Positions 30,312 through 46,057 of a stretch of 64,000 nt of DNA are shown here, piece after piece. The notes under the pieces were generated by a model that saw only the letters and a program-made list of their open reading frames with translations, had not been told where the DNA came from and searched no databases. Every line of letters begins with the position of its first letter. Within the stretch, counting starts at the first letter, position 1. Position numbers and translations under genes: made by a program. This DNA is from Eubacteriales bacterium (GTDB lineage Bacteria > Bacillota > Clostridia > Oscillospirales > CAG-272): assembly GCA_045632285.1 (NCBI GenBank), contig JAZQWJ010000037.1, positions 22,251-86,250 on the forward strand, read 5' to 3'.

Positions 30312-30321
30312 GGGGGTTGCT

Positions 30322-30810
30322 ATGGGACGTATATACATTGACCAATACACCGGCCGCATCAAGCGCAGTGACATTTATTTGGTGACCTTGACGCTAAAAG
30401 ACGGTACCGTTATTGAGAATTTGGAACCAAGGCGCCTTTTTCCCGTAACCAACGCCGATATGTTTATCACGCTTTTGGATCATGATGAAAAGGAAGTCGC
30501 CTTTGTCCGCGACCTTGCAGAACTGGACGAAGGCTCTGCCAACGAGCTGCGCCAATGCTTTAAGGAATACTACCGCATCCCACACATTTTCAAGCTGCTT
30601 GAAAGCGACGAAAAGTTTGGATCTTTGACGTGGAAGGTAGAGACCGACCGCGGCACCGTATCCTTCCGTATCCGCAACCGCCACAGCGACATCAAATGTA
30701 TGAACGGAAAGCGCGTGCTGATCCGTGACACCAACGACAACCGCTATGAGATCCCGGACTATACCGCACTGGATCCGCACAGTCGCAGGCTGCTGTTTTC
30801 TTATCTGTAA
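30322..30810 (+). CDS. DUF1854-like protein (ABC-exporter-associated, function unknown)
   Basis: Start trimmed to ATG 30322 (MGRIYIDQYTG), after GGGGG. 162 aa. The sequence resembles the DUF1854 family as I remember it, which is typically adjacent to ABC ATPase/permease genes. Confidence 0.6.
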   Translation: MGRIYIDQYTGRIKRSDIYLVTLTLKDGTVIENLEPRRLFPVTNADMFITLLDHDEKEVAFVRDLAELDEGSANELRQCFKEYYRIPHIFKLLESDEKFGSLTWKVETDRGTVSFRIRNRHSDIKCMNGKRVLIRDTNDNRYEIPDYTALDPHSRRLLFSYL

Positions 30811-30818
30811 AGCAGCCC

Positions 30819-30858
30819 AAAGGCGTGCAAGCCCCGATGGGCTTGCACGCCTTTTGCT
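30819..30858 (+). terminator. Intrinsic terminator
   Basis: AAAGGCGTGCAAGCCC-CGAT-GGGCTTGCACGCCTTT followed by TGCTTT. Confidence 0.75.
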
Positions 30859-30903
30859 TTGGGACATTATAGCACAAATCCAATCATTTTCTCGGTGAAA
30901 GTC

Positions 30904-30932
30904 TTGCGTTTTGCACAAAAGCGTGCTATACT
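30904..30932 (+). promoter_or_regulatory. SigA-type promoter
   Basis: TTGCGT, 17 nt, then TATACT with a TGc extended -10. GAGGAGG RBS before ATG 30962. Confidence 0.45.
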
Positions 30933-30961
30933 AAGGGAGATCCCACATTGAGGAGGACACT

Positions 30962-33900
30962 ATGAAACGCTTTTTTGCCTTGCTGCTTTCATGCTGCTTG
31001 TTGCTCCCACTGCTTGCCGTTGCACTCCCCGCCTCGGCTGCGGCGGCGCCTGTGTTGCCCGTTACGCTCTCACTTGGCTTCCCCGCCATCAAGGCCGATG
31101 CGGGTGACACGGTGGATCTTTCAATTTACAGCGTGACCGCCGACGACGGCAGCGTAATGCCTGCCTCCTCTATTACTTGGCAGTCAAGCGAGCTTGCGAT
31201 ATCGGATAACAAGGTAGCCCCTGCAAGCAAGGGCGTGTACCGCCTGACCGCCACGGCAAGCGAAAAGACCAAAACCGTCTATCTGCTGGTCAAGGACCTC
31301 ACCGATACCGAATACGTGCTGTTTGACGAGGATTTTGAGGACGTGACCTCTGTCGATCAGCTGCTGGATGCCGGCTATACCGTTGCGTACAAGTCCGATG
31401 CCGCCTCCATTTCGCTCTCCGACGGCAAGCTTGTGCTGTCGGGTCAGTCCCATAATGACTGCTATATCCGTTTACTGCTCCCTGCTTGGCTGGGCGACCT
31501 TGGCGACTATCGCATCGAGGTCAACGCCGCCATGACGGCACGCATTAAGGACACCCATTGGATGGGTATTATGTACCGTGTCCAAAACAGCGACTATCCC
31601 TACTATCAAAACACCTTCCGCGCTATTACCACCGCATATAACGGTACCGAGGTCGCCGAGCGCAATGCCTCCGATGCGTGGAACGTGATACACACCAATT
31701 CCTACACCACCGATATCAACAGCGGCAGCAGCACACCTGCCTATCGCAATTTTGCCGTAGAGGCCTTTGGCGACCGTGTCAATTCGATCATCGACGGCAC
31801 CGTTGTGGCCTCTGATATCCGCATTTCCAAATACGACCGCGGCCGTTTGGGCTTGCAGGTTCGTGCAAGTGAGCTCTCCGTCGAGCGCTACCGTGTGGTC
31901 ATCCCTGCCGAAACCGGGATCATTGAGGTAAACGACCCTCACTCCGACGTAGTCAATGCCCCCTCGATCATCACCGAGATCAACAGCGCATCCGCACTTT
32001 CCGCCCTCGCCGAAGGCGGCGTACTCCCCGCTACCGCTATTTTCCACGTAAACGGTGACGGCAACGTTACCACCCCCACGGGCGATGCCATTTGCTCACT
32101 TGACAACGCAATGGCGCTATTGCAAAATCGCGCGATCCCCGCCTTTTACGTCAGGGATACAAAAGCCGCAGATACGCTTGGCACGTGGTTGAAGGATAAG
32201 GGCCTAAAGGATGCCTTTGTGGTGTCAAATGTCGCAAATTTGATACAACGTGTGCGGAATTTCGCAACGATCTGCCGTGGCGTGCTGGATCTCTCCGGTC
32301 GTGATCTCACAGGCATCAGCGCCGCTTCCCTGCGTGCAGAGGTCAATAACTGCGGGGCTCGTGTGGCCCTGCTCCCCTCCAACTACGCCGCCCGCGATAC
32401 CGTCACCGCTCTGCACGATCTGGCAGTGGCTGTATGGACAAGAGAGGCCGCCGACAGCGATGTTGCCCGCATGAGCGCAGTTCTTTCGGGGGCGAACGGT
32501 GTTGTGACAAGCGATCCTCAGGCTCTGGCCGCCTGCTATACCGCATATTTTATGCCAAGCACGCTGATCGCCTCCCCCGGCATCATCGGTCACCGCGGTT
32601 CCCCCATCCACGCCCAAGAAAACACAGTGGAGGGTGCGCTGCTTGCCATAGAGCTTGGCGCCACCCTGATCGAGGCCGATTTTTATTTGACAAAGGATAA
32701 CTTTGTTGTCACCATGCACGATGCCGACATTTCCAGAACCACCAACGGCTCGGGCAACGTGAGCAGCTTTACCTACGCAGAGCTGTCTGCCTTTCTTGTA
32801 GATGACAACGCCGACGTTGCGCCCAAGCCCATCCCCCTGCTGTCCGATTATTGCGCCGCGCTAAAGGGCAAGGACGTCCGCCTGGTGATCGAGATCAAGG
32901 ACGGCAACACGGCCATCTGCCAAAAGATCGTAGATGTCATCGACAGCTACGGCATGCGAGATCAAGTGGTCATCATCTCGTTTGACACGAAAATCCTGAC
33001 CGAGTGCAAGACAGTTTGTCCCGAGCTTTCCGTGGGCTGGCTCGGCAACCTCTCCATGAGCTATGCTGCGGCTGAAAGCGATCCCGAAAAAGCACTTGCC
33101 GAGATCCTGCCCATCGTGCAGCAATACGAGTCCACCTACAACCCCAAATACAACAGTATCGGCCTCAATCTTGTCAGGGCCGCCAACCACCGCGGCGTGC
33201 TGATCCTGCCTTGGACCATCAACAGCAAAGCCGATTTTGACAAGATGTTCCGCTATGGCACTCATGCCTTTACCACCGACTATCTCAACTGGATATCAAG
33301 CTATATAAAGGACCTGAAGACCGATCAAAAAACCTATATAACCAATACCGTTGGCGGGGATATTCCCTTGTCGCTTCACGCCGAGGCCTATAACGGTGCA
33401 GTGACAGCGCCCGCCCGCGCCACACTGACCGTAGTGGAGCAAAGCGGCACGCTTTCTCTCTCCTATGAAAACGGAAAGCTGACTACAAGCGGCACGGGCA
33501 GTGCCACCTGCCTGCTGTCGGCATCCTTCTTCACCGCATCGGGCAGTATGTACAGCAAATGCACCGAGCTGTTCACCGTTACGGTAGACCCCCATTACGC
33601 ACCGCCCCTTGCCGCAGGCCGCTGGCATCTCGGCAACGGTGCGCCCACCACCCCTGCCGAGGACGATGCGCTGTATCTGGATCTTGACAGCGGCAACGTC
33701 TATGCCTTTGACGGCACGTGGCAGCTGACGGGCTCGCTGAAAAGCGAGGCGCCTACCGTGGAGATCGTGGGCGAGTTTTGGTACATCAATGGTGTCAATA
33801 CGAGCATCAAGGCCAAGGGGGAGGATGGCAAGGACGGTGCCGCAGGCACCATTGATGCCACGCTTTCCATCGGACAAAACGGGAACTGGATGATCGACGG

Positions 33901-34213
33901 AGCCGATACCGGCGTTGCCGCCACCGGTCCCAAAGGCGATACCGGTGCAACAGGCCCACAGGGTCCTGCCGGTAAAGACGGCAAGGACGGTGCCAACGGT
34001 CTACCCGGCAAGAAGGGCGAGAACGGTGCCAACGGTCTGGATGGCATTGACGGAAAGGACGGCGCAGACGGCAAAGATGCCACCGCAGACACCGCCGCAC
34101 TGGAAAGCGCCACAACCACAGCCGCCATCGCCATTGTGATCGCCTGCGTGCTGCTGGTGATCAACATCACGCTGATCATCTTTTGGCTGATCCGCAGAAG
34201 GCGACATTTTTGA
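30962..34213 (+). CDS. Secreted, membrane-anchored multidomain protein with a glycerophosphodiester phosphodiesterase (GDPD) domain and a collagen-like GXY tract
   Basis: Signal peptide MKRFFALLLSCCLLLPLLAVALPASAAAAP. GDPD motifs IIGHRGSPIHAQENT, EADFYLTKDNFVVTMHD. 17 uninterrupted GXY triplets (GPKGDTGATGPQGPAGKDG..., nt 33926-34078). C-terminal TM AIAIVIACVLLVINITLIIFWLI followed by RRRRHF. Confidence 0.8.
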   Translation: MKRFFALLLSCCLLLPLLAVALPASAAAAPVLPVTLSLGFPAIKADAGDTVDLSIYSVTADDGSVMPASSITWQSSELAISDNKVAPASKGVYRLTATASEKTKTVYLLVKDLTDTEYVLFDEDFEDVTSVDQLLDAGYTVAYKSDAASISLSDGKLVLSGQSHNDCYIRLLLPAWLGDLGDYRIEVNAAMTARIKDTHWMGIMYRVQNSDYPYYQNTFRAITTAYNGTEVAERNASDAWNVIHTNSYTTDINSGSSTPAYRNFAVEAFGDRVNSIIDGTVVASDIRISKYDRGRLGLQVRASELSVERYRVVIPAETGIIEVNDPHSDVVNAPSIITEINSASALSALAEGGVLPATAIFHVNGDGNVTTPTGDAICSLDNAMALLQNRAIPAFYVRDTKAADTLGTWLKDKGLKDAFVVSNVANLIQRVRNFATICRGVLDLSGRDLTGISAASLRAEVNNCGARVALLPSNYAARDTVTALHDLAVAVWTREAADSDVARMSAVLSGANGVVTSDPQALAACYTAYFMPSTLIASPGIIGHRGSPIHAQENTVEGALLAIELGATLIEADFYLTKDNFVVTMHDADISRTTNGSGNVSSFTYAELSAFLVDDNADVAPKPIPLLSDYCAALKGKDVRLVIEIKDGNTAICQKIVDVIDSYGMRDQVVIISFDTKILTECKTVCPELSVGWLGNLSMSYAAAESDPEKALAEILPIVQQYESTYNPKYNSIGLNLVRAANHRGVLILPWTINSKADFDKMFRYGTHAFTTDYLNWISSYIKDLKTDQKTYITNTVGGDIPLSLHAEAYNGAVTAPARATLTVVEQSGTLSLSYENGKLTTSGTGSATCLLSASFFTASGSMYSKCTELFTVTVDPHYAPPLAAGRWHLGNGAPTTPAEDDALYLDLDSGNVYAFDGTWQLTGSLKSEAPTVEIVGEFWYINGVNTSIKAKGEDGKDGAAGTIDATLSIGQNGNWMIDGADTGVAATGPKGDTGATGPQGPAGKDGKDGANGLPGKKGENGANGLDGIDGKDGADGKDATADTAALESATTTAAIAIVIACVLLVINITLIIFWLIRRRRHF

Positions 34214-34240
34214 TCTACAAAAAGCTGATAGGCAACTATA

Positions 34241-34274
34241 AAAACAGGCACAAGTAACAACTTGTGCCTGTTTT
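34241..34274. terminator. Bidirectional terminator between convergent genes
   Basis: AAAACAGGCACAAGT-AACA-ACTTGTGCCTGTTTT. Confidence 0.75.
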
Positions 34275-34291
34275 CTCATACCAATATAGGG

Positions 34292-35149
34292 TTAATTGCC
34301 TTTTGCGGCAAGATAAGCACGGTGCATGGCCAGCGCGTCCTCACTTTGCGTCCCTGCCGATTCGCTGATAATGCGGGGGCACAGACTGTCTATGACCAAA
34401 GCCTCGGCCAAGGGATCGAAATCAGGGCCGTAAACCGTATCGGCAAGGGTCAGATGGCGCTTTTCGCCCGCATCGGTATATTCGATCTTGGAAAAATGGC
34501 AATGCATATAGCGCGCCTTGTCATCACCAAGGCCGTTTGCCACGGCATCGAAAATGCGGCGGTAGCTATCACGGTTGGGGAAAAGGCCACCCCGTTCGCG
34601 GGCATTCAGATGTCCAAAATCCACAACGGGATAAAGATGCGGATCGATCTTGCAGATCTCAATGACCTCCTCCAGCGTGCCCAACTGATTGACCTTACCC
34701 ATGGTTTCGATACCAAGATGAATGGGGGTATCGCCTACGGCCTCGATGGTTTTAAGCAGTGTATCCTTAGCCAGCTCCACGGCCTCGGCACGGGAGATCT
34801 TAGAGGCACTGCCACAATGGATCACAATGGTGTCTGCGCCAAGTGCCTCGGCAGCCTCCAGAGATCTTTGAATATACTCCACGCTTTTCAAACGCTTTTC
34901 GGGGTCAACGCCCGAAAGCGAGATATAATAAGGGGCGTGCAGCGACATTTCGATGCCGTGCTCTCTTGCTTTTTCACCGATCTTGGTGAGCGTGGGAATT
35001 CCCGCTGTCAAGCCGTTTCCCGCCTCAAATTCATAGGCTCCGAGCCCAAGCCCGGCCACAAAGCCCGGGGCCTGTACCGTGGCCTTGCAGCCCGCATCGT
35101 AAAAGCTTTGGCTGTTGCCACCGGGGCCAAAAATTGCCGTTTTTCTCAT
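34292..35149 (-). CDS. TIM-barrel protein of the xylose isomerase-like / AP endonuclease 2 (endonuclease IV-like) superfamily
   Basis: 285 aa. Pattern HAPYYISL..., TIVIHCGS..., IHLGIETMG..., VDFGHLNA is typical of this fold. The exact activity cannot be determined from sequence alone. Confidence 0.55.
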   Translation of the reverse strand: MRKTAIFGPGGNSQSFYDAGCKATVQAPGFVAGLGLGAYEFEAGNGLTAGIPTLTKIGEKAREHGIEMSLHAPYYISLSGVDPEKRLKSVEYIQRSLEAAEALGADTIVIHCGSASKISRAEAVELAKDTLLKTIEAVGDTPIHLGIETMGKVNQLGTLEEVIEICKIDPHLYPVVDFGHLNARERGGLFPNRDSYRRIFDAVANGLGDDKARYMHCHFSKIEYTDAGEKRHLTLADTVYGPDFDPLAEALVIDSLCPRIISESAGTQSEDALAMHRAYLAAKGN

Positions 35150-35697
35150 ACCGTTTTATGCTCCTTTGTAAGAGGGCTGCCCGCTCTGATATCGGGGGCA
35201 GTCGGGTTCTTTTTGTAATATCGCTTTAGCCGCCCCTTTTCCAAGCGGCGCTTAAAGCGCGTGATCTTATTGGTCTTGTCTACGATGGGGGGTACCAAAA
35301 TGGCGCGAATGCCCGCCATATGCGCACACAGCACGTCAGTAAAGATCTGATCACCGATCAACGCTGTGCTTTGCTTGCTTCCACCAAGGCTTTTCATCAT
35401 TTTCTTTGCATTTTTTGAAAGAGGCTTATGTGCATCATAGCGTACGGGAAGCCCCAGAGATCTGTTGAATAACTCGACCCGTTCGGCGTGATTATTAGAA
35501 AGGAACGCCACCTTGACCCCTGCATTTTTCAGTGACTCAAGCCATGTAACGATGTTTGCATCGGGCTCAGGCTGCTCGTAGGGGGCAAGCGTATTATCGA
35601 TATCGGAAAGCAACACCTTGATGCCCGCTTTCAACAAAAATTCGGGGCTGACGTCCCGATAGGACAAAAATGTATAGTCCGGCTGAAGCAATGCCAC
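35146..35697 (-). CDS. yqeG: YqeG-family HAD-IIIA phosphatase
   Basis: Start set to GTG 35697 (VALLQPDY), after AAGGGGGGAG. HAD motifs LLSDIDNTL, AFLSNN, LIGDQIFTDV. The 79 upstream codons of the ORF are AT-rich promoter DNA. Confidence 0.7.
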   Translation of the reverse strand: MALLQPDYTFLSYRDVSPEFLLKAGIKVLLSDIDNTLAPYEQPEPDANIVTWLESLKNAGVKVAFLSNNHAERVELFNRSLGLPVRYDAHKPLSKNAKKMMKSLGGSKQSTALIGDQIFTDVLCAHMAGIRAILVPPIVDKTNKITRFKRRLEKGRLKRYYKKNPTAPDIRAGSPLTKEHKTV

Positions 35698-35841
35698 GCG
35701 TCTCCCCCCTTTTTTGCTGTATTTTATATGATTATTGTACCATATTTTCAAAAAAAAGACAAGCCTTCGCCATTTAAAAATGTATTTTCTATGATTTTTT
35801 CGTTTCTTGCGAAAAAAACTTAATTTTTTTCGTTTTTTCTC

Positions 35842-35870
35842 TTGACAATATCGTTTGAATGTGGTATTAT
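35842..35870 (+). promoter_or_regulatory. SigA-type promoter of the tRNA cluster
   Basis: TTGACA, 17 nt, then TATTAT with a TGg extended -10, about 28 nt upstream of tRNA-Gly. Confidence 0.55.
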
Positions 35871-35897
35871 AGTAAGGCAGTTTTGAAGTCACCGCAT

Positions 35898-35971
<74 letters not shown>

Positions 35972-35977
35972 TTGTAC

Positions 35978-36054
35978 GCGCCTTTAGCTCAGCTGGATAG
36001 AGCAACTGCCTTCTAAGCAGTAGGTCGGGGGTTCGAGCCCCTCAAGGCGCGCCA
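35978..36054 (+). tRNA. tRNA-Arg (anticodon TCT), CCA encoded
   Basis: GCGCCTT paired with AAGGCGC. D-arm GCTCAGCTGGATAGAGC. Anticodon arm ACTGC-CTTCTAA-GCAGT. T-loop GGTTCGAGCC. Confidence 0.9.
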
Positions 36055-36071
36055 CTGCAAAAACTTTATAT

Positions 36072-36149
36072 GGTGAGTGTAGCTCAGTTGGTTAGAGCGC
36101 CAGGTTGTGGCCCTGGAGGTCGTGGGTTCGACTCCCATCACCCACCCCA
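36072..36149 (+). tRNA. tRNA-His (anticodon GTG) with G-1, CCA encoded
   Basis: G-GTGAGTG..GCTCAGTTGGTTAGAGC..CCAGG-TTGTGGC-CCTGG..GGGTTCGACTCCC..CACCCAC-C-CCA. There is one A.C mismatch (4:69) in the acceptor stem. Confidence 0.85.
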
Positions 36150-36482
36150 ATGCAAAAAGGCACCCAAACGGGTGTCTTTTTTTGCATTGGGAGGCGTGGT
36201 GCGGAGGAGAACCCCGAAAGCTCGCGGGGGATGCACATCCCTGCTTTTCCTTTCTTTGGACGGAGCTTTCTGCTTCGCCTTGGCGAAGCGAATCGACATC
36301 CCATCACCCACCCCAATGCAAAAAGGCACCCAAACGGGTGTCTTTTTTTGCATTGGGAGGCGTGGTGCGGAGGAGAACCCCGAAAGCTCGCGAGGAATGC
36401 ACATCCCTGCTTTTCCTTTCTTTGGACGGAGCTTTCTATTTCGCCACAGGCGAAATGAGACAACATCCCATCACCCACCCCA
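36150..36482 (+). repeat. Two tandem 166/167-bp units, each ending in a copy of the tRNA-His 3' end
   Basis: CCCATCACCCACCCCA occurs at 36134-36149 (in the tRNA), 36300-36315 and 36467-36482. Each unit starts with the hairpin AATGCAAAAAGGCACCC-AAAC-GGGTGTCTTTTTTTGCATT and carries an 82-nt core (36189-36270, 36355-36436). Confidence 0.9.
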
Positions 36483-36537
36483 AAATGAAAAACCACCCCA
36501 AAAGGCTTCTTCTCATAAGGAATTTTGATTTTGTTTT

Positions 36538-36585
36538 GTAGGGGTGTTCAATGAACGCCTGCGGGCGACCGATGGTCGCCCCTAC
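36538..36585. repeat. REP/REPIN-like GTAG-headed palindrome pair
   Basis: GTAGGGGTGTTCA-A-TGAACGCC on the plus strand and GTAGGGGCGACC-ATC-GGTCGCCC on the minus strand, back to back. Confidence 0.5.
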
Positions 36586-36661
36586 GGACAATCAAAATTT
36601 GATACGCAGAAAACAAAGAGGTAACCCCGACAGATCTTCAAAAATCTGTCGGGGTTCGCTG

Positions 36662-36919
36662 TTATTGATGATTATTTTCTTTCCATTTGAACATTTCTTT
36701 GAAATCATCGTAACAAGTCGGACATATCCAATAGTAATTATCTTCTGTTGTATATCCCTCGTGTAGCGTATTGGGATAATCGGAAAATTTCTCCCAACAA
36801 AATTCGCAATGATCGTGATCCCATTCTTTCTTTGGTGCTTTCCATTTGCGAAAATATAATGCTTTGCCTGATAAATAATCTTCTTGACCTCTTAATCTCC
36901 AATCATCTTTATCTATCAT
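36662..36919 (-). CDS. Small Cys/His-rich protein (putative zinc-binding), function unknown
   Basis: Start trimmed to ATG 36919 (MIDKDDWRLRGQ), after AAGGAG. 85 aa. Motifs WDHDHCEFCW and YWICPTCYDDF. AT-rich relative to its surroundings. Confidence 0.6.
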   Translation of the reverse strand: MIDKDDWRLRGQEDYLSGKALYFRKWKAPKKEWDHDHCEFCWEKFSDYPNTLHEGYTTEDNYYWICPTCYDDFKEMFKWKENNHQ

Positions 36920-36958
36920 GAATATATCTCCTTGGGTTTTATCACAAGTTTCGTCTTT

Positions 36959-37033
36959 GTAGGGCGGGGGTTTACTCCCGCCGTTGCCTAAAAAAAGACC
37001 TTTCGTCACGGCGGGAGCAAGCCCCCGCCCTAC
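36959..37033. repeat. REPIN-like doublet: two inverted GTAG-headed palindromes
   Basis: GTAGGGCGGGGG-TTTA-CTCCCGCCG (36959-36983) and, on the minus strand, GTAGGGCGGGGG-CTTG-CTCCCGCCG (37009-37033), separated by 25 nt. Confidence 0.55.
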
Positions 37034-37102
37034 GATGTAACCCCATTATAACACAAATCGGCATAGCAGGCAATATCTCTGCTGAAATTTATTGGTATAT
37101 CT

Positions 37103-37129
37103 GTAGGGGAGGGGAGACCCCTCCCCTAC
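37103..37129. repeat. REP-like perfect palindrome
   Basis: GTAGGGGAGGGG-AGA-CCCCTCCCCTAC, a 12-bp perfect stem. Confidence 0.55.
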
Positions 37130-37188
37130 GATTGAATACGAGAACATCCTTATGAGAACCAGCCTAAACGGGGTGGTTTTTTCGTTTT

Positions 37189-37298
37189 GGGAGGCGTGGT
37201 GCGGAGAAGAACCCCGAAAGCTCGCGGGGAATGCACATCCCTGCTTTTCCTTTCTTTGGACGGAGCTTTCCGCTTCGCCTTGGCGATCCTATCACCAC
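37189..37298 (+). repeat. Third copy of the 82-nt repeat core plus a degenerate tRNA-His 3'-end copy
   Basis: 37189-37270 nearly matches 36189-36270. It is followed by GCTTCGCCTTGGCGA and ATCCTATCACCAC (37286-37298), versus ATCCCATCACCCAC in the other units. Confidence 0.8.
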
Positions 37299-37302
37299 TT
37301 AT

Positions 37303-37342
37303 GTCACGAAAAAAGCACCCACGTGGGTGCTTTTTTCGTGAC
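37303..37342. terminator. Bidirectional terminator
   Basis: Perfect 20-bp palindrome GTCACGAAAAAAGCACCCAC/GTGGGTGCTTTTTTCGTGAC just downstream of the convergent gene that ends at 37352. Confidence 0.75.
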
Positions 37343-37351
37343 ATCATCTTT

Positions 37352-38311
37352 TTAATCCGCAAAAAAGGACTTGACAAATTCCTCTTGCGTGCCGTCATAT
37401 TCGGCGAGCGCCAGGAACTCTTTTCCGTATTGATTTCCCCAGCTGTAGGTGATCACGGTCTTGCCATCATAGTCGCACATATCAAAGTCGCTGTTGTTGC
37501 AGTTGACTGCCTTGGAAAGATACTCCAGCTGCTCCGCGGTGAAGCGCTCGGGGTGGATCACCTTTTTATCATCGTTGTCAAACCACATCACGGGGTTGAT
37601 CACGCCAAGCTCAAAGTCGCGCAGATCGCGGCTTCTTGCAATGTAGGGGATCCAGCGATGGAAGGGGGCGGACTCCAGGCAGATAATGTAAAAATACCCA
37701 TCATAATATCGCAAGCAGGGGCAGGCGGTATAGCGGTCGCGGCAATAGGAATATTCCATCATATCCAGCATATCCCAATGCACAAGATCCTTTGATTCGG
37801 CAAACACACAGGTATAGGGCCTGCCCACAGCAGGGTCGTCACCGCCAATCTCAATGGCCATAACATAGCGGTCACCCGCTTTGCAAACAGAGGTGTTGTA
37901 GATTTGAATCTGCTCGGGCAGCACCAGCGCAGTGCTTTGCTCCCAGTGCTTCAGGTCGGAGGAAACAAAGGTGTTGATCACGTTGCCGCCGCCGTTGCCC
38001 GCAACGCCGTGGACATACATCCTCCCGTTTTCGGTGTAGCAGCAGCCGAAGGCGTGACCTTCCGCGAACTCGCTGACGATCTCCTCAGTTTCCATATCAA
38101 TCAAATAATAGCAGCCCGTCTTGCGCACCACGCCGCCGGGCTTGCCCCATTCGCTATTGCGGGACCACTCAAAGCGCAGAAGCCTTTCCTTCCACACCAC
38201 GGGCGTGGCCTCCACGGCGGAAATCTTGACGGTTCCAAGCTTGTGCAGCGTTTTTCTTATCGAGATCTCGGCGTTTTTCAGCTGCTCTCTGTAGCTTTTC
38301 AGTACACTCAT
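37352..38311 (-). CDS. Beta-propeller-like protein, possibly a glycoside-hydrolase fold (family uncertain)
   Basis: Start trimmed to ATG 38311 (MSVLKSY), after GAGGAGGGG. 319 aa with repeated blade-like segments (GRMYVHG.., GDRYVMAIEIGG.., YFYIICLES.., KTVITYSWGN). No family could be assigned by eye. Confidence 0.4.
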   Translation of the reverse strand: MSVLKSYREQLKNAEISIRKTLHKLGTVKISAVEATPVVWKERLLRFEWSRNSEWGKPGGVVRKTGCYYLIDMETEEIVSEFAEGHAFGCCYTENGRMYVHGVAGNGGGNVINTFVSSDLKHWEQSTALVLPEQIQIYNTSVCKAGDRYVMAIEIGGDDPAVGRPYTCVFAESKDLVHWDMLDMMEYSYCRDRYTACPCLRYYDGYFYIICLESAPFHRWIPYIARSRDLRDFELGVINPVMWFDNDDKKVIHPERFTAEQLEYLSKAVNCNNSDFDMCDYDGKTVITYSWGNQYGKEFLALAEYDGTQEEFVKSFFAD

Positions 38312-38322
38312 GGTTCCCCTCC

Positions 38323-39108
38323 TCAAACCTCCAAGTCAACGTAAACAGGCGAGTGATCGGTAGCATCCAGCGCCGCCTGATCGGTAACAACGCAATAGTC
38401 AAGAACCCTATAATCCCCTTCCGTGCCAACGATGTGATCCAGTGACATAGCATAAGGATTCTGCGTTGTCTTGCCGTGGTAGCGACCGTCCTCGCCGCGT
38501 ACAGGATAGCCGTGATAGGTGCTAAAAGCGGGATACGTAGGCGCCAAATCCGCCATCTGCTTCATACCGCGCTTCTCGTAGACCTTGAAAATAGAGGAAG
38601 AAAGGCCTGCGTTCATATCTCCCATACCAAAGGCCGCCACGCATCCATAGTGATGCATCATATAGCGCATACGCCACACCATTTGTTCGGCATTGAACTC
38701 GCGTGCCTCGTCATACTGCGGGCCGCCGCGATATTCAAAATGCGCAGTGCAAACAGCGATCCTTTTCTCGCTCTCCTTGTCGATAAGCACAGCCCATTGG
38801 ATGTTTTTGGAGCCATCCTCGGTGTGAGTCAGCTGCTCAAAGCCGCTTCTGTGTACGGTGAAGCGATCCGCCTTCACAAACATCACATTATAGCCGGAAA
38901 ACTCAGTGGGGGCGTTGTTCAAAACCAGATAACCCGCAGCCCTCATATTGGTCATCAAGGTCGACCGATGCCAGCCGGGCGTGACCTCTTGAATGCCGAT
39001 CACGTCACAGGCATACTTTTGATACACCTCGAAAAGCTGATCCTCGCGAACCTGTACCTCGTTGCCGAAATAGTCACCCCAAATGTTGGATGTCATAATT
39101 CTGATCAT
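38323..39108 (-). CDS. Endonuclease/exonuclease/phosphatase (EEP) family protein
   Basis: Start trimmed to ATG 39108 (MIRIMTSNIWGDYFGN), after AGAGGGA. Motifs IGIQEV, GDMNA, SLDHI and DHSPVYVDL are typical of EEP. Confidence 0.7.
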   Translation of the reverse strand: MIRIMTSNIWGDYFGNEVQVREDQLFEVYQKYACDVIGIQEVTPGWHRSTLMTNMRAAGYLVLNNAPTEFSGYNVMFVKADRFTVHRSGFEQLTHTEDGSKNIQWAVLIDKESEKRIAVCTAHFEYRGGPQYDEAREFNAEQMVWRMRYMMHHYGCVAAFGMGDMNAGLSSSIFKVYEKRGMKQMADLAPTYPAFSTYHGYPVRGEDGRYHGKTTQNPYAMSLDHIVGTEGDYRVLDYCVVTDQAALDATDHSPVYVDLEV

Positions 39109-39284
39109 AGCAAGATCCCTCTTATAATGCGTTTTTTGATTTATTATAAATGAAAAAGCCGCAAATGTAAATGACATTTTTGATTTTTTTTGCGACAATA
39201 TTGACTTTAACACACCAACACGCTTGCCTTTTGGTAGCTTGTGTGCTATAATCAAGCAAAGAACGATCAGAACAGGAGGCGACC

Positions 39285-40202
39285 ATGCTGACCGCACCCT
39301 ATCTCCCGCCCGAGACCATACGCAAATACAACTCCAGGCTAATGGATATCTTTAGCCTTTATATGAATCTGTTTCCCACCGCGATCGATGCCAAAACCGT
39401 AACCGAGCTGGCTGCCGATTGCAATATTCCGCTGGCCGAGGCCTTTGCACACTATCTGGCCGCGCTGATGGATCTGGATGCAGGCGGCGCCGACCGCTTG
39501 TTTTTTCAGTATTGGCTGCTTCCTTCGATCCGCGAATTGGAACCAAGCGCCTACACGGCAGACGACTATTTTCAAAAAATCAAAATCCCCGCTGATCTGC
39601 GCGGCAAATGGCAGTTGAAGACCGAGCGCCTTGCCCCCTTTGAGGCCTTTGTTTGCAACGATATTGTGGTCACCGAGGATCGACGTATGATCCCGCAGAT
39701 CGGTTTTTTCAAAGAAGAGTATACCTTCCCCGCCGTTTTGGAAAATGGGAGAGAGTGGATGACTCTGCTCCCCAACGAGATGGTGACCTCTTATCCCGCC
39801 ATCAACGCAGCAAACGGCCGCGTACTGACCTTTGGCCTGGGGCTTGGCTTTTTTGCCTATCACGCCAGCCAAAAAGAGAACGTAAGATCGGTCACGGTGG
39901 TGGACATCAGTGACGATGTGATCGACCTTTTCCAAACCCACATCCTCCCCCAATTTCCCCACAAAGAAAAGATCAAGATCGTGAAAATGGATGCCTTTGA
40001 GTTTGCCAAAACGCAAATGGCAGGCAATTTTGATTTTGTGTTTGCCGACATCTGGCACGATGCAGGAGACGGCTGCGAGCCCTATTTAAAAATGAAAGAA
40101 TGGGAAAAGCAATTCCCCGACATCACCTTTACCTATTGGCTGGAGGACACCCTCAAATGCTATCTTGAGAAGGATCTTTGGGACATACCCACAACCAAAT
40201 AA
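39285..40202 (+). CDS. Class I SAM-dependent methyltransferase / spermidine synthase-like fold protein
   Basis: 305 aa. Gly-rich motif VLTFGLGLGFFAY, then VTVVDISDDVI and FVFADIWHD, in the order expected for a Rossmann MTase/SpeE fold. AGGAGG RBS. Confidence 0.5.
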   Translation: MLTAPYLPPETIRKYNSRLMDIFSLYMNLFPTAIDAKTVTELAADCNIPLAEAFAHYLAALMDLDAGGADRLFFQYWLLPSIRELEPSAYTADDYFQKIKIPADLRGKWQLKTERLAPFEAFVCNDIVVTEDRRMIPQIGFFKEEYTFPAVLENGREWMTLLPNEMVTSYPAINAANGRVLTFGLGLGFFAYHASQKENVRSVTVVDISDDVIDLFQTHILPQFPHKEKIKIVKMDAFEFAKTQMAGNFDFVFADIWHDAGDGCEPYLKMKEWEKQFPDITFTYWLEDTLKCYLEKDLWDIPTTK

Positions 40203-40209
40203 AAAAAAA

Positions 40210-40247
40210 CAAGAAAAGCTCTGCCAAGCAGAGCTTTTCTTGTTTTT
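40210..40247. terminator. Bidirectional intrinsic terminator
   Basis: CAAGAAAAGCTCTGC-CAA-GCAGAGCTTTTCTTG with an A-run before and TTTTT after. Confidence 0.8.
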
Positions 40248-40315
40248 GCTTCATATTTTCCAATTTTACAAATTTGTTTTCCACAAATGACCGTATTTTA
40301 TATTACAAATTCCAA

Positions 40316-41554
40316 TTACTGCACTTTTGCGGCATTTTTCCTGTTTTCGCACACCCAATACCAGCCTAAAAGCAAGGTTGCAAAAAAGCGCACGGCGTTG
40401 GCTGCCACAGCCGCTAAAGCAAAGCCCCACAGTCCACCAAGCACCGTGGCAGGGATCCCTGCGCCAAAAAAGCAGAGTGCAAAAAGGCCATTGATATACA
40501 GCTGATACGTTTTTTTGGCAAATCGCAACAGAACCACGGCCAACGTTCCCGTGACAAAATAGATCACCTGTGCCAAGCTGCCCACCCACAAAAAAGGCAG
40601 CACCGCATCATATTCCGCAGGATACAGCCACAACATCACCAACCATCCGCCAAACACGCAAGCGACCTCAAACACACCAACGGCAGCAAAGCTCCCTACG
40701 GTCATCCATTTCATGCCGCGGCGGTCAAGCGCGCCGTGAAAGCGCGCCAGATGGCCCAAGAGCACACCGTTGAGAGGAAGTGTCAACAAGGACATCATTT
40801 TACCAACCAAGGTAGCCAGATAATAAGCCGTAACTGCAGTGGGGCCTATCAAAAGCTTGATGATCAATCGGTCGGCATTCAAAATTAAATTGGCAAAGCC
40901 CTCGGTAAGACATAGTAGCAACACAGCGCGTGTCACGCGCCCAAACCCGGGAGACGGCCGCAAAAATCCTTTGCGCAGCGTTCCATCCCCCAAATAGGCA
41001 TATAGAACCCCGCTAAGCTCTCCTATCAAAATACCAAGCGGCCATATTCCCGTCAGATAAAACAGCCACGTACCCACGGCATATCCAACGCCGATCAGGG
41101 CATAGTATAAAAAGTAGCGTCGATATCGCAGCGTCAGCTTATAGGAAACGTCGGCATAATAGCGAAGGATCATTGCCACAAATAACAGGTAGTAGCAGAT
41201 CTTATCTGCCCTACTCATCTCCACGCCGCCAAAGCGGCCGATCAACAAAACAAAGGGGACGCCCAGCACAGCTGCAGCCAGTAGGATCAGGTGATAGTCA
41301 CCGTTGTTTTCCAAGCGATCTGCAGCAGGCGCGGTCATACGCGCCATATTGGCGGCACATCCAACAGAAACCGTAATGATATTGATATACGCCATCAGGT
41401 ATTGCAGCTCGCCATAAGCGTAACCTCCCATACGGGAGGCCAACAACGGATACAGCACCAGCTGCGCCACAACGTTCATCAGCACAAGGCCCGCAATGCT
41501 CCAGATAGAATCTCCCAGCTGAAGACGGTAGCGCTTGATCCTCTCCCAAATCAT
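40316..41554 (-). CDS. Polysaccharide/oligosaccharide flippase-like membrane protein (MOP/PST superfamily)
   Basis: Start trimmed to ATG 41554 (MIWERIKRYRLQ), in a 4-nt ATGA overlap with the upstream gene. About 12 hydrophobic segments, with the length and pattern of Wzx/PST-type exporters. Confidence 0.6.
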   Translation of the reverse strand: MIWERIKRYRLQLGDSIWSIAGLVLMNVVAQLVLYPLLASRMGGYAYGELQYLMAYINIITVSVGCAANMARMTAPAADRLENNGDYHLILLAAAVLGVPFVLLIGRFGGVEMSRADKICYYLLFVAMILRYYADVSYKLTLRYRRYFLYYALIGVGYAVGTWLFYLTGIWPLGILIGELSGVLYAYLGDGTLRKGFLRPSPGFGRVTRAVLLLCLTEGFANLILNADRLIIKLLIGPTAVTAYYLATLVGKMMSLLTLPLNGVLLGHLARFHGALDRRGMKWMTVGSFAAVGVFEVACVFGGWLVMLWLYPAEYDAVLPFLWVGSLAQVIYFVTGTLAVVLLRFAKKTYQLYINGLFALCFFGAGIPATVLGGLWGFALAAVAANAVRFFATLLLGWYWVCENRKNAAKVQ

Positions 41555-42237
41555 ACTATCCCCCGCTGTAGCAGAGCCTCGGCTACAGTTTCCGTCAAGC
41601 ACACATCATTGGTCAACAAAGCATCGCCAAGGAGATGTGAAATAAATGCATCACGCGTGAGGAGAGCGCCGCAAGGAGGCTCCTTGCACAAAGCGTAAGC
41701 GCTCCAATCACCAAGGGTTCCAACGCAATATTTTTTGCCGTCGATCAGATATTCAGCATCCCGAGACTCTCCTACGATCTCCAGCATCCAGAGATCGTAT
41801 TTGTTGCAAAAATTACGCACCGTTGGTGCGTTTTTGATGCACGCAGCTGTATGATCAAGCAAAACGGCACGTGTGGAAAGCGATAAACTTTCTTCCAGCG
41901 CGGCGCTTGTCACAACGCGTTCTTCGGGCGAGATACGAAGCCAAGCAGCGCATCCGCCAAGAGCGGAAATGATTTCCGGCAATCGCGATTCGCCGGCAGT
42001 GATCACAATAATCTCGTCCCCCTTGACAGCCGCTTTTTCCCCTAATTCAGGCGAGAACAGCACCTGCACGGTGCTATGTTCTGCTGCCATCGGCGTTTTA
42101 GCAAGCCCGCAATGAGAAATGTGGAGATTTCTTGCCGTCCGTGTAGCCAAGCGCGCAAGCGCAGTCATCTGATCGGTTTCGTGTGGCATCGTGTCTTCGC
42201 TTTCGTGATCGTGCCGATGCTCATACCATTCCATCAC
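41551..42237 (-). CDS. Short DegT/DnrJ/EryC1-like (PLP fold) protein, divergent or truncated
   Basis: 228 aa. The segment STRAVLLDH..NFCNKYDLWMLEIVGES..VGTLGDWSAYALCKEPPCGALLT parallels the DegT core (..VH..IEDaAqa..GslGd..fSF...K..GEGG..T). The protein is about 140 aa shorter than usual and has an acidic/His-rich N-terminus. Confidence 0.35.
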   Translation of the reverse strand: MMEWYEHRHDHESEDTMPHETDQMTALARLATRTARNLHISHCGLAKTPMAAEHSTVQVLFSPELGEKAAVKGDEIIVITAGESRLPEIISALGGCAAWLRISPEERVVTSAALEESLSLSTRAVLLDHTAACIKNAPTVRNFCNKYDLWMLEIVGESRDAEYLIDGKKYCVGTLGDWSAYALCKEPPCGALLTRDAFISHLLGDALLTNDVCLTETVAEALLQRGIV

Positions 42238-42356
42238 ATCTCCCCCTTTCCTTTACTACTTTTGTCATTATATCATAACAAGCGCATTTTTGCAAGGTGT
42301 TTGCACGCTCTCAAGCAATCGGAAACGTATTTAGCACAGGTTTTTTGCATAATCTA

Positions 42357-42385
42357 TTGACAAACTACATCTTTTGTGCTAAAAT
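42357..42385 (+). promoter_or_regulatory. SigA-type promoter for tRNA-Pro
   Basis: TTGACA, 17 nt, then TAAAAT with a TGc extended -10, about 18 nt upstream of the tRNA. Confidence 0.55.
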
Positions 42386-42403
42386 AATTAAGTATGGATT
42401 CAT

Positions 42404-42480
<77 letters not shown>

Positions 42481-42517
42481 CAAAGAAAAGACCGCCCTTG
42501 TGGCGGTCTTTTCTTTG
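42481..42517 (+). terminator. Terminator hairpin directly after tRNA-Pro
   Basis: CAAAGAAAAGACCGCC-CTTGT-GGCGGTCTTTTCTTTG. Confidence 0.7.
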
Positions 42518-42635
42518 TGCTTGTGTGTGGCGAGCAGACGAAATTGCGCAGCCGTAGGCGGCGCAAGACAAGTTTGCTTGCAAACTTGAGCGCAAGTCCA
42601 CAGGACTTGGCGCAACGAATAGGCGCTCCGCGCCG

Positions 42636-42652
42636 TCTTGTCACCTCGACCA
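42636..42652 (+). repeat. Direct repeat of the last 17 nt of tRNA-Pro
   Basis: TCTTGTCACCTCGACCA at 42464-42480 and again at 42636-42652, a spacing of 172 bp. Confidence 0.9.
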
Positions 42653-42659
42653 GAAAAAA

Positions 42660-42690
42660 CCTTGGAAACACTAGGTTTCCAAGGGTTTTT
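42660..42690 (+). terminator. Terminator hairpin after the repeated tRNA-Pro 3' end
   Basis: CCTTGGAAAC-ACTAG-GTTTCCAAGG followed by GTTTTT. Confidence 0.7.
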
Positions 42691-42774
42691 GATTTGCTTG
42701 TTGTGTGGTTTTTCTTTTAAGTTCAAAACGTTATTGTGCGGCCCTATACACAGCTTTTCCCGGACCGCAAAAGG

Positions 42775-44472
42775 CTAAAAATATTGCTCCATACCGCAGG
42801 GCAGGGCTTTTTGTGCCAAAGCCTGCTCTCTCACTACGGTCGCATAAAAGCGGTAACCGCCCGAGAAATTATAGGCGGTAAAGCCGTTCCCTTCTAAGAT
42901 GCGTGTGGCAATATAGCTCCGCAAGCCGCTTTGGCATATCACGTAAACGGGCTTTCCCTGCGGCACTTCGCTAATGCGATCGCGCAGCTCATCAACGGGG
43001 ATATTCAAAAAGCCCTTGATGTGCCCCGCAGCATATTCGCCGCGTGTGCGCGTATCCAGCAGGGTCACGTCTGTTCTTTGCAAAAGTGCAGAAATCTCCT
43101 CTACGTGCCACTGTTTTAGCGTACCGTTGGTCAAATTTTCGATCATAAAGCCCACCATGTTAACAGGATCCTTGGCCGAGGAATAGGGGGGCGCATAGGC
43201 AAGCTCCAGGTCCTTTAGCGCGGTTGCCTTCAGCCCCGCGTGGATGGCGGTAGCCAACACGTCGATGCGCTTGTCCACACCTTCACTTCCTACGATCTGC
43301 GCACCAAGCAAACGAAGCGTGTTTTTTTCAAAGATCACCTTTATCGTCATCACACCACCGCCGGGATAATATCCGGCGTGACTCATGGGAGAAAGGATGA
43401 CCTTATCCGTCAAAAACTCACCCCGTTGGGCGGCTTTTTCGTTCAGACCCGTCGTTGCGGCAGTCAATCCAAACACCTTAACGATCGCGCTGCCCATCGC
43501 CCCGCGATAGTGGCTTTCTTTGCCGCAGATGTTATCTGCGGCAATGCGTCCCTGCTTATTGGCAGGCCCCGCCAAGGGCATCAGCGTATCCTCGCCCGAT
43601 ACGGCGTGCTTGATTTGAACGGCATCGCCAACCGCATAGATATCCGGCACGGAGGTCTCCATTTTATCGCTTACAAGAATGCTCCCCTTGGTGCCAAGGG
43701 CAAGCCCGGCGCTGCTTGCAAGGGCAGTATCCGGCACAACGCCAAGCGACAGGATCACCATGTCCGCGTGCAGCATATCGCCGCATTCCAGCCTTACGCC
43801 GATCCCGGCCTCAGTCCTATCAAGTCCCGTAACACTGTGACCCAGCAACAGATCAACGCCGTTTTTGCGCATTTCTGCGTGAATAAACGCCGCCATATCC
43901 GCGTCAAACGGCAACAGCAACTGCTCCTGCCGTTGCACAACAGTTACCGCCAAGCCCAGTCTGCGCAGGTTTTCTGCCAGCTCTACACCAATAAAGCCGC
44001 CACCCGCAAGCACGACCGAGCGCGGACGGTGCTGTTTGACATATGCCTTGATGCGTTGCGTATCCTCTACGGTACGGAGGGTAAACACGCCCTCTTGCGT
44101 TGCACCGTCAATGGGCAAAAGCAGCGGCTTGGCTCCCGGTGCCAGAAGCAGTTTGTCGTAAAATTCAAAAAACTCGATACCGTTGGTCAGATTTTTGACC
44201 AAAACCCTTTTTTGGACGGGGTCTACGGACAACACCTCGTGCCTTGTTTTTGCCGTAATACGAAACCGCGCAAAAAAGCTTTCCGGCGTTTGCAGGGTCA
44301 GCTCCTCTTCGTCGGTGATCACGTCACCGACATAATAAGGCAACCCGCAATTGGCATAAGAGATATATCCCGAACGCTCGAACACAAGGATCTCCGCCCT
44401 TTCATCCAAGCGGCGGATGCGCGCCGCTGCAGTAGCGCCACCGGCCACACCTCCAACGATCACAACCTTCAT
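42775..44472 (-). CDS. CoA-disulfide reductase-type FAD/NAD(P)H oxidoreductase fused to a C-terminal rhodanese domain
   Basis: Start trimmed to ATG 44472 (MKVVIVGGVAGGATAA), after AAGGGGAG. Redox Cys in SYANCGLPYY. Second dinucleotide fold VVLAGGGFIGVE. Rhodanese active-site loop VYVICQSGLRS. Confidence 0.85.
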   Translation of the reverse strand: MKVVIVGGVAGGATAAARIRRLDERAEILVFERSGYISYANCGLPYYVGDVITDEEELTLQTPESFFARFRITAKTRHEVLSVDPVQKRVLVKNLTNGIEFFEFYDKLLLAPGAKPLLLPIDGATQEGVFTLRTVEDTQRIKAYVKQHRPRSVVLAGGGFIGVELAENLRRLGLAVTVVQRQEQLLLPFDADMAAFIHAEMRKNGVDLLLGHSVTGLDRTEAGIGVRLECGDMLHADMVILSLGVVPDTALASSAGLALGTKGSILVSDKMETSVPDIYAVGDAVQIKHAVSGEDTLMPLAGPANKQGRIAADNICGKESHYRGAMGSAIVKVFGLTAATTGLNEKAAQRGEFLTDKVILSPMSHAGYYPGGGVMTIKVIFEKNTLRLLGAQIVGSEGVDKRIDVLATAIHAGLKATALKDLELAYAPPYSSAKDPVNMVGFMIENLTNGTLKQWHVEEISALLQRTDVTLLDTRTRGEYAAGHIKGFLNIPVDELRDRISEVPQGKPVYVICQSGLRSYIATRILEGNGFTAYNFSGGYRFYATVVREQALAQKALPCGMEQYF

Positions 44473-44543
44473 TTCGTTCTCCCCTTTTCTGTTGCTTCTT
44501 CTATTATACACCGTCAGGATCGATTTAAAACGAAAATCGCGTT

Positions 44544-45983: not shown

Positions 45984-46057
45984 ACCGTCCTCCATAAAAT
46001 ATTGCTCGTACAAAGCGGCGGATAAAACAAGTTTATCCGCCGCGTCAAAAAATTCAA

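Follow-up and report, generated by a model that had tools for sequence, protein, structure and literature searches.

We analysed a window of 64,000 nucleotides from an Eubacteriales bacterium (contig JAZQWJ010000037.1 of assembly GCA_045632285.1) and examined a tandem array that lies directly behind its tRNA-His(GTG) gene. This gene is clustered with those for tRNA-Gly and tRNA-Arg, and it is followed by three units of ~166 nt, each of which closes with a copy of the tRNA 3′ end that is degenerate in unit 3. The units are copies of tRNA-linked repeat (TLR) modules, gene-less and folded, and not scars of virus integration; the name of the class is that of Stenum et al. 2021 (PMC8144298). While the class is already known from E. 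coli, it occurs here in a distant phylum and with unusually clear comparative evidence. The host genome is a metagenome-assembled genome (MAG) from short reads with 76 contigs and 2.2 Mb, and the copy numbers of its arrays may be inexact.

Tandem copies of the tRNA-His 3′ end

The last 16 nt of tRNA-His, CCCATCACCCACCCCA at 36134-36149, are found again 166 bp (36300-36315) and 333 bp (36467-36482) downstream, and a degenerate third repeat, CCTATCACCAC, lies at 37286-37298. Tandem Repeats Finder reported a period of 166 with 2.1 copies and 93% matches. Both the reiteration in ~166-bp units and the degenerate copy had been described in the original prediction, which was made from this stretch by a model, and both were found. 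The same is true of an 82-nt core that occurs three times (36189, 36355 and 37189) with 97.6-100% identity and at no other place in the 2.2-Mb genome; its first 36-mer has these three occurrences, with zero expected in shuffles. The stem that closes the core, GAAAGCTC/GAGCTTTC, is present, and the short hairpin changes between units 1 and 2 in a paired fashion (GCTTCGCC/GGCGAAGC versus ATTTCGCC/GGCGAAAT), as had been noticed. The prediction that every unit starts with one particular long hairpin applies to units 1 and 2, but not to unit 3, which has a hairpin of its own (AAATGAAAAACCACCCC ... GGGGTGGTTTTTTCGTTTT) with its loop interrupted by 661 bp. The A.C mismatch at 4:69 of tRNA-His can likewise be read in the sequence, and it is common to all related tRNA-His for which the full sequence was printed.

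The original prediction did not include an antisense copy of the tRNA that opens each core. In every tRNA-His unit, positions ~49-76 of the tRNA are the template of this antisense arm as well as of the sense arm at the end of the unit. The covariance-model match of unit 2 extends over 36354-36482 with 112 bits; its short hairpin is ATTTCGCC-ACA-GGCGAAAT and its T-loop copy is degenerate. For unit 3, the match covers 37188-37306 with 59.5 bits.

We regard it as scarcely credible that the tandem units were produced by the assembly of short reads. The genome is a MAG of 76 contigs, and near-identical 165-bp repeats, of which locus L031 has five, are hard to count with such reads. However, the 7% of positions that distinguish unit 1 from unit 2 follow a structured and compensatory pattern, and one to five units stand at the same place in independent assemblies of ~17 other species.

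A three-helix fold under selection

The general order of a unit is a terminator hairpin, the antisense arm (from position 76 back to ~49), helix P2 (GAAAGC...GCTTTC), hairpin P3 and the sense arm, in which T-loop positions 55-59 are followed by one extra nucleotide and then by positions 60-76 with CCA. The antisense arm pairs with the sense arm to form P1, which closes a three-helix fold of P1, P2 and P3 on the same strand as the tRNA. Minimum-energy folds were computed for 18 units from 11 genomes and P1 enclosed P2 and P3 in all of them. The RNAalifold consensus is the same fold.

The original prediction had suggested a covariation analysis of collected copies, and covariation is strong in all helices. 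Among the His units, 92% of cells in the alignment are paired and 19 of the 26 pairs show double-sided changes. In the set for other targets, 94% of cells are paired, double-sided changes are seen in all 26 pairs, and P2 alone is 99.7% paired. Sliding the partners reduced pairing to 42-51% and 40-47% in the two sets, respectively. None of 500 shuffles reached the observed values in either set, a significance that is overstated owing to the relatedness of the sequences and to alignments that had been fitted to the model. G·U pairs outnumber A·C by 42 to 15 in the His set and by 37 to 8 for the other targets (79 versus 23 in total). This excess of G·U arises in spite of a C-rich sense arm, which favours A·C, and indicates that the folded strand is that of the tRNA. 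These results show that the fold of the modules is under selection, on the tRNA strand. The positions of the features are listed in Table 1.

Table 1 Features of the tRNA-His array and the tRNA-Pro module in the window
Feature	Position	Strand	Remarks
Promoter-like site of the tRNA-Gly/Arg/His operon	35842-35870	+	TTGACA-17-TATTAT with TG
tRNA-Gly	35898-35971	+	ARAGORN; clustered with tRNA-Arg and tRNA-His
tRNA-Arg	35978-36054	+	ARAGORN
tRNA-His(GTG)	36073-36149	+	ARAGORN; CCA encoded; A4.C69 mismatch
Unit 1, leading terminator hairpin	36150-36187	+	ATGCAAAAAGGCACCC-AAAC-GGGTGTCTTTTTTTGCAT
Unit 1, antisense arm	36188-36215	+	TGGGAGGCGTGGTGCGGAGGAGAACCCC; imperfect reverse complement of tRNA-His positions 76 to 49; 5′ strand of P1
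Unit 1, helix P2	36217-36270	+	GAAAGCTC ... GAGCTTTC; interior variable
Unit 1, hairpin P3	36272-36289	+	GCTTCGCC-TT-GGCGAAGC
Unit 1, sense arm	36293-36315	+	TCGAC (T-loop 55-59), one extra A, positions 60-76 with CCA; 3′ strand of P1
Unit 2	36316-36482	+	Parts as in unit 1; hairpin 36316-36353
Unit 3, left half of leading hairpin	36483-36503	+	AAATGAAAAACCACCCC and part of the loop; from sequence
661-bp insert	36504-37164		Terminal inverted repeats of 18 bp, GGCTTCTTCTCATAAGGA / TCCTTATGAGAACCAGCC, 16/18; outside the module proper
Unit 3, remainder	37165-37298	+	Right half of hairpin 37165-37188, antisense arm, P2, truncated P3, degenerate sense arm 37286-37298
Array-closing terminator hairpin	37301-37344	+	Also serves the convergent gene 37352-38326
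tRNA-Pro(CGG)	42404-42480	+	ARAGORN
tRNA-Pro module, second scaffold family	42481-42652	+	Terminator hairpin 42481-42518, gapped antisense arm ~42523-42547, four hairpins
tRNA-Pro module, sense arm	42636-42652	+	TCTTGTCACCTCGACCA

Subtypes and junctions of the arms

Two subtypes of the module, a and b, have P2 and P3 in common and differ in the sense arm. That of subtype a reads TCGA-N59, one extra C or A, and then T60 to A76; it was seen for His, Arg, Glu and transfer-messenger RNA (tmRNA), with Val ambiguous. In subtype b, GGTTC is followed by one extra A and then by G57 to A76, and this form was seen for Leu-CAA, Leu-TAG, Arg and His. N59 and the T-stem in the modules match the local tRNA. 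The antisense bases opposite G57/A58 are the faithful TC in 2 of 67 cases; GA occurs 20 times, GC 13 times and CC 10 times. A tandem G·A motif opposite G57/A58 was rejected as a general rule, being present in only about one third of units. We also rejected GnGAACC behind the antisense arm as a shared scaffold signal, as it is the complement of the universal T-arm GGTTC.

Distribution in the host genome, the genus and the order

In the host genome, modules complete with terminator, antisense arm, hairpins and sense arm stand behind at least nine tRNA genes, and in each case the arms match the gene's own tRNA. Those with both arms are His, Pro-CGG, Pro-TGG, Leu-TAG, Leu-GAG, Arg-ACG, Thr-GGT, Gly-GCC and Gly-CCC. 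The original prediction had stated that tRNA-Pro in the window shows the same architecture as tRNA-His. It does have a unit with a sense arm at its end, yet the scaffold belongs to a different family. This second family, with four covarying hairpins, also stands behind tRNA-Leu(TAG), Pro(TGG) and Arg(ACG), and two further copies lie on contig C61.

Three more tRNA genes carry an antisense arm only: Gln-TTG (C65, 31929-32003), Ser-GGA (C64, 23063-23154) and Glu-TTC (C64, 20542-20616). The tRNA 3′ end, the terminator and a perfect antisense copy of 13-16 nt form one long palindrome at these loci, and the downstream sense copy is absent; at tRNA-Ser(GGA), the contig breaks off within the locus. 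These three may represent precursors of modules or half-modules.

For the scan across species, one genome was used per species, and 36 species have an identical tRNA-His 3′ half. All are MAGs of Clostridia/Oscillospiraceae from the ruminant gut, one of them named Candidatus Flemingiibacterium. Approximately 17 of the 36 have one to five units of 165-225 nt behind tRNA-His, and about 12 have a plain terminator only, so that the empty sites that had been suggested as a check do occur, at the level of species.

A covariance model, R1, was built from 11 His units; its E-values are rough owing to a shortened calibration. It matches 40 units behind tRNA-His in related species. In 40 genomes of the genus, it also matches behind Arg(ACG), Glu(TTC), Glu(CTC), Ser(TGA), Leu(CAA), Leu(TAG), Val(CAC) and tmRNA. 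These modules are on the tRNA or tmRNA strand in every case and their arms fit each target. The original prediction had asked whether copies of the core always abut tRNA 3′ ends: in the host genome the core occurs at tRNA-His alone, and all copies in the genus with an identifiable neighbour are behind a tRNA or tmRNA gene. A MITE or a repeat derived from an insertion sequence was rejected, as the core is at this one locus in the genome and its inverted 'ends' reproduce the target itself. When R1 was run on 301 genomes of the order, it had matches in two, one of which is the window's own and the other a weak one outside the genus. The His-type scaffold is thus essentially restricted to the genus. 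An exact 35-mer of the core had no match in the genome contig collection. For strain-level variants of the array, a metagenome scan with the downstream protein returned only two close contigs, both very short and with the array absent, and look-ups of identical proteins gave no record.

In one genus genome (G008; L071, 1501-2028), a module with the same scaffold lies behind a tmRNA gene with the tag ADENVALAA. Both arms derive from the 3′ end of the tmRNA, and its T-loop copy has the same one-nucleotide insertion.

Foreign DNA within arrays

The 661-bp insert splits the loop of the leading terminator hairpin of unit 3. It carries an open reading frame (ORF) for a Cys-rich protein of 85 aa on the minus strand (36662-36919), which had no Pfam match. 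Two other genomes of the genus have loci with 84-92% identity to the gene part of the insert. Short GC-rich hairpins (e.g. GTAGGGG...CCCCTAC) lie on both sides of this ORF, at 36530-36660 and 36955-37130; many genus genomes have 10-29 copies of this type, and the hairpins look like a REP-like or MITE-like family. In another genus genome (G025; L034, 388-3050), a tRNA-His array is split likewise in the loop of a unit's leading hairpin. There, the insert is 2.6 kb long and contains genes for an AraC-family regulator and a beta-lactamase-fold protein (PF00144) but no mobility gene. The hairpin loops of tRNA-His units may be insertion hot spots.

One of the two readings in the original prediction was that the units are serial integration scars or mini-elements of a tyrosine integrase. 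In this reading, the repeats would be scars of the attL/attR type, or gene-less and cis-mobilisable remnants of tyrosine-integrase islands or prophages, accumulated serially at the tRNA-His 3′ end. The array does resemble att repeats in its direct repeats from the T-loop to the CCA end, which is the classic sublocation used by integrases, as well as in tandem accretion behind one tRNA gene, in the use of tmRNA targets and in the foreign DNA within arrays (the 661-bp insert and the 2.6 kb in L034). The most distal repeat, moreover, is often degenerate, as a displaced original tRNA end would be. However, there is no integrase in the window or on the contig; the genome has two tyrosine-recombinase genes (PF00589), on contigs C4 and C21, against at least nine loci with both arms. 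The 16-mer CCCATCACCCACCCCA, which had been proposed as a lead to the attP of an integrase, is nowhere in the genome except at the tRNA-His locus. What lies between the repeats is not degraded island DNA but a conserved fold of 130 nt that includes the target in inverted copy, and one scaffold is re-matched to many targets, with the same design behind at least nine tRNA genes. In both the window and L034, foreign DNA sits in the loops of leading hairpins and not at the tRNA-end repeats, and no phage or plasmid match was found. The integrase reading is therefore largely refuted and we consider it very improbable, although its notion of serial acquisition survives in arrays of mixed subtype (see below). 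Instead, the conserved and covarying fold, its presence behind many tRNA genes and tmRNA in the same orientation, and the architecture shared with E. coli TLRs support the other reading, that of a structured and possibly transcribed element family linked to tRNA. Genome annotation should not label arrays of this kind as integration scars or islands.

Growth of arrays and changes of target

Near-identical units within an array, as in L031, fit unequal recombination between the repeated 3′ ends plus terminators. Other arrays are mixed: L076 has units of subtypes b, a and b behind tRNA-Arg, L004 has b and a behind tRNA-His, and L008 and L047 each have a short and a long unit behind tRNA-His. Since arrays mix scaffold subtypes, growth has occurred by serial acquisition as well as by tandem duplication. 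We propose that arrays would grow by unequal recombination between the repeated 3′ ends, with the occasional acquisition of a further module. Distal units decay, as seen in unit 3 of the window and in unit 5 of L007.

A tree of the cores was built on 83 core columns. It groups the modules mainly by target across species, with 11 changes of target versus 37 changes of genome label. Within the window, units 1 and 3 join the single unit of a sister species and unit 2 stands apart. The tree contains switches as well: one His module has P2 and P3 of the Arg type (SH-aLRT 98), a tmRNA module falls among Glu modules (97), and one His unit groups with Leu-CAA units (91). As the cores group by target across species, inheritance has been mostly vertical, with rare transfers in which both arms were re-matched. 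Over evolutionary time, the scaffold would sometimes have shifted to another tRNA or tmRNA gene with its arms re-matched to the new target.

The arms and arrays could also be imagined as neutral by-products of replication errors at terminator hairpins, made by fold-back or template switching, by which a palindrome would grow outward into the tRNA end, and then by slippage between the repeats so formed, with neither a function nor a dedicated machinery. It would agree with this view that a tRNA end, a terminator and an antisense arm make one long palindrome, that three tRNA genes have the antisense arm without a sense arm, and that distal units decay. Debris would not be expected, however, to preserve P2 and P3 by compensatory changes across species and targets, to contain more G·U than A·C, or to conserve scaffold, helix order and junction type. 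We consider a neutral origin quite unlikely.

Relation to known structured repeats

The 178-bp distal repeats of tyrT/tyrV, also known as RtT (rttR), were reportedly described by Egan & Landy 1978 and by Rudd 1999 and correspond to Rfam RF00391. In our own reading, the 178-nt unit of E. coli tyrV-rttR has as its successive parts an antisense segment GGGGAAGGATGAGAAGCTTCGA (the faithful complement would be GGGGAAGGATTCGAACCTTCGA), the 5′ half of the T-arm in sense orientation, hairpins and AATCCTTCCCCCACCACCA. The tRNA-His units resemble it in having an antisense arm copied from the T-arm and the 3′ strand of the acceptor, hairpins and a sense end, and also in the replacement of TCGAA by GAGAA in the antisense T-loop copy, opposite G57/A58. 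In both systems, one to five tandem copies stand directly behind a tRNA gene on the same strand and end with the last ~19 nt of the tRNA with CCA. In contrast, an RtT unit opens with a spacer of ~58 nt where the tRNA-His units open with an intrinsic terminator, RtT contains the tpr ORF, and the hosts are an enterobacterium and a Clostridia MAG from ruminant gut. Rfam RtT (RF00391) had no match at E<=1 in 30000-46000, and in the E. coli RtT locus (L057), R1 scored no higher than 4 bits for the repeats themselves (689-993) and nowhere more than 9.6 bits.

TLRs have been known in E. coli since 1978. There are 22 of them at ten loci, with one to five per locus, and every one closes with 18-19 bp of the tRNA or 5S gene that precedes it (PMC8144298). 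The modules described here are similar in that several loci per genome are each matched to their own tRNA (PMC8144298). In the window, units begin directly behind the tRNA and are co-oriented with it (36150 for His and 42481 for Pro). Identity at the 3′ end extends over 17 nt (T60 to A76) in units 1 and 2, following the T-loop copy, and also over 17 nt for tRNA-Pro. The array has three units, relatives have one to five, and nine loci of the genome have both arms. The units in the window thus have every structural property of TLRs and lie outside the Rfam RtT sequence family.

The tRNA-linked TLRs of E. coli are still without a known function, a claim made for RtT in 1991 having been withdrawn in 1994 (PMC8144298). 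More is known of rrA/B/F: they lie between the terminators T1 and T2, their transcription depends on polymerase reading through T1, and both of their ends are made at 5S-processing sites; Stenum et al. proposed that the repeat serves to recruit 5S processing (PMC8144298). The tyrT-rttR region shows raised 'mobilome' coverage under stress, for which no mechanism was given (preprint 10.1101/2024.07.17.603846). The rrnB trailer has the order of parts seen in our units, namely the 3′ end of a stable RNA, T1, a structured element of ~150 nt, a copy of the 3′ end and T2, and its mechanism is the one that we propose for the tRNA-His units. On the other hand, rrA/B/F are linked to 5S rRNA and not to tRNA, and they bind Hfq and CsrA through GGA loops that are not evident in the tRNA-His units. 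They are also processed by RNase E, which to our knowledge is lacking in many Clostridia. No clear antisense arm was seen in the 5S-linked rrB; the antisense arm is therefore not universal among TLRs.

Two other kinds of structured nucleic acid invite comparison. The tRNA-like domain of tmRNA and the Y RNA YrlA resemble the modules in that a CCA-ending helix of the acceptor and T-stem 3′ strand closes a larger structured RNA. Unlike these, the modules have no T-loop or D-loop mimic, their CCA is paired, they have no Rfam match, and they are always linked to the tRNA that they copy. Group II introns (EBS/IBS), the bridge RNA of IS110/IS1111, and IS200/IS605 with its ORF-less derivatives combine a constant structured scaffold with short segments complementary or identical to a target, and they have hairpin-rich non-coding ends. 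The tRNA-His modules differ from such guide-bearing elements as they have no encoded or nearby enzyme and no dispersed copies, their arms are much longer (16-28 nt), and they are mostly inherited vertically.

In the literature that was searched, we found no description of TLRs beyond E. coli and related enterobacteria. Because the same design is present in a distant uncultured genus of Clostridia, with several scaffold families, covariation and matched arms, it is a selected one and not an enterobacterial oddity. The comparative data gained here on conserved helices, junction rules and the antisense arm should help in designing experiments on an RNA role and on how arms are matched.

Possible transcription or mobility of the modules

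We favour, with some reserve, the view that the units are most likely a structured RNA transcribed by read-through, with ends set by the tRNA 3′-end machinery. The promoter-like site of the tRNA operon is the only one upstream of the units on the plus strand and it is strong; no such site was found within the units on that strand. RNA polymerase starting there would pass the leading terminator and transcribe the unit, the 5′ end of which would be made by the 3′-maturation cut of the upstream tRNA or upstream unit. Since each unit ends in the helix-plus-CCA sequence of the tRNA, we propose that its 3′ end is set by the tRNA 3′-end machinery as well. The product would be a stable structured RNA of ~130-166 nt, its amount following the transcription of the tRNA operon. 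It might, for instance, act as a decoy or sponge that captures factors with affinity for tRNA ends.

Several points weigh against this view. Transcription, processing and stability of the units are all argued by analogy with rrA/B/F and RtT, and the units have no sequence or covariance-model similarity to Rfam RtT. A strong intrinsic terminator opens each unit, and most transcription may consequently stop before it. P1 includes the CCA end (TGGG paired with CCCA), such that the 3′ end is not a free NCCA tail as in tRNA. In the minimum-energy fold of tRNA-His together with unit 1 (36073-36315), the real tRNA contributes its T-arm and the 3′ strand of its acceptor to a pairing with the antisense arm across the terminator, and the 5′ acceptor strand of the tRNA pairs with the downstream sense arm; this invasion of the tRNA is a possible alternative conformation of read-through transcripts. 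Besides the overstated significance of the shuffles, the covariation and the tolerance of G·T would also fit a folded intermediate of single-stranded DNA. Lastly, the antisense arm tracks its target to positions 49-53, the 5′ strand of the T-stem, which have no partner within subtype-a modules. This looks like templated copying rather than selection for an internal fold.

A possible though doubtful alternative is that the modules are mobile elements in miniature, with no genes of their own and directed at tRNA and tmRNA genes, either at the 3′ end or at the T-loop; this would be compatible with transcription. The arms would then be guides that select the target or copies templated by it during insertion, and the hairpins would serve mobilisation as folded single-stranded DNA or RNA and not a function of the host. 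Such an element could account for one scaffold family behind at least nine targets with matched arms and for a second behind Pro, Leu and Arg in the host genome, for the mixed subtypes in L076, L004 and L008, and for a presence that varies among the 36 species despite their identical tRNA-His. It could likewise account for T-loop-copy junctions that are specific to the subtype (the extra nucleotide at 59/60 or at 56/57), for the antisense copy of 49-53 that the internal fold does not need, and for the arm-swapped switches in the core tree. No candidate enzyme was found, however; the two tyrosine recombinases are not near any module, and reverse-transcriptase and HUH-transposase families were not searched. 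As cores group mainly by target, movement must be rare and most copies vertical. The scaffold is limited to one genus, its orientation is always that of the tRNA, no copies lie away from tRNA or tmRNA ends, and there are none in phage or plasmid collections. Furthermore, the 5S-linked TLRs of E. coli are demonstrably transcribed and processed (PMC8144298).

More tentatively still, and with an even lower likelihood in our judgement, TLR-type modules may be retargetable elements in which a conserved hairpin scaffold takes on two copies, one antisense and one sense, of the tRNA or tmRNA 3′ end behind which it has come to lie. The fixed junctions with one extra nucleotide, the copy of 49-53, the mixed arrays and the arm-swapped switches would suggest templated insertion at the universal T-loop, and the route would be copy-choice, reverse transcription or recombination. 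If this is true, TLRs would represent a new class of nucleic-acid-directed mobile element found from E. coli to Clostridia.

Other observations

When 30000-46000 of the window was searched with the covariance models of Rfam 15, only tRNAs passed and all other matches were far below their gathering scores. One of these was to the Vibrio antisense RNA AS7 at 44285-44453 (44.9 bits versus a gathering score of 90), in or antisense to a gene for a pyridine-nucleotide-disulfide oxidoreductase, and is probably due to chance. On contig C51 of the host genome (6540-6624), ARAGORN called an 85-nt tRNA whose anticodon, TTA, would pair with the stop codon UAA; it may represent a suppressor tRNA, or the call may be false. 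The genes near the array are of ordinary kinds, coding for a GDPD/collagen-repeat protein and for GH43-like, EEP-family, methyltransferase and CoA-disulfide-reductase-like proteins. The first of these, an ORF of 1083 aa at 30962-34213 of the window, combines a GDPD phosphodiesterase domain with collagen triple-helix repeats.

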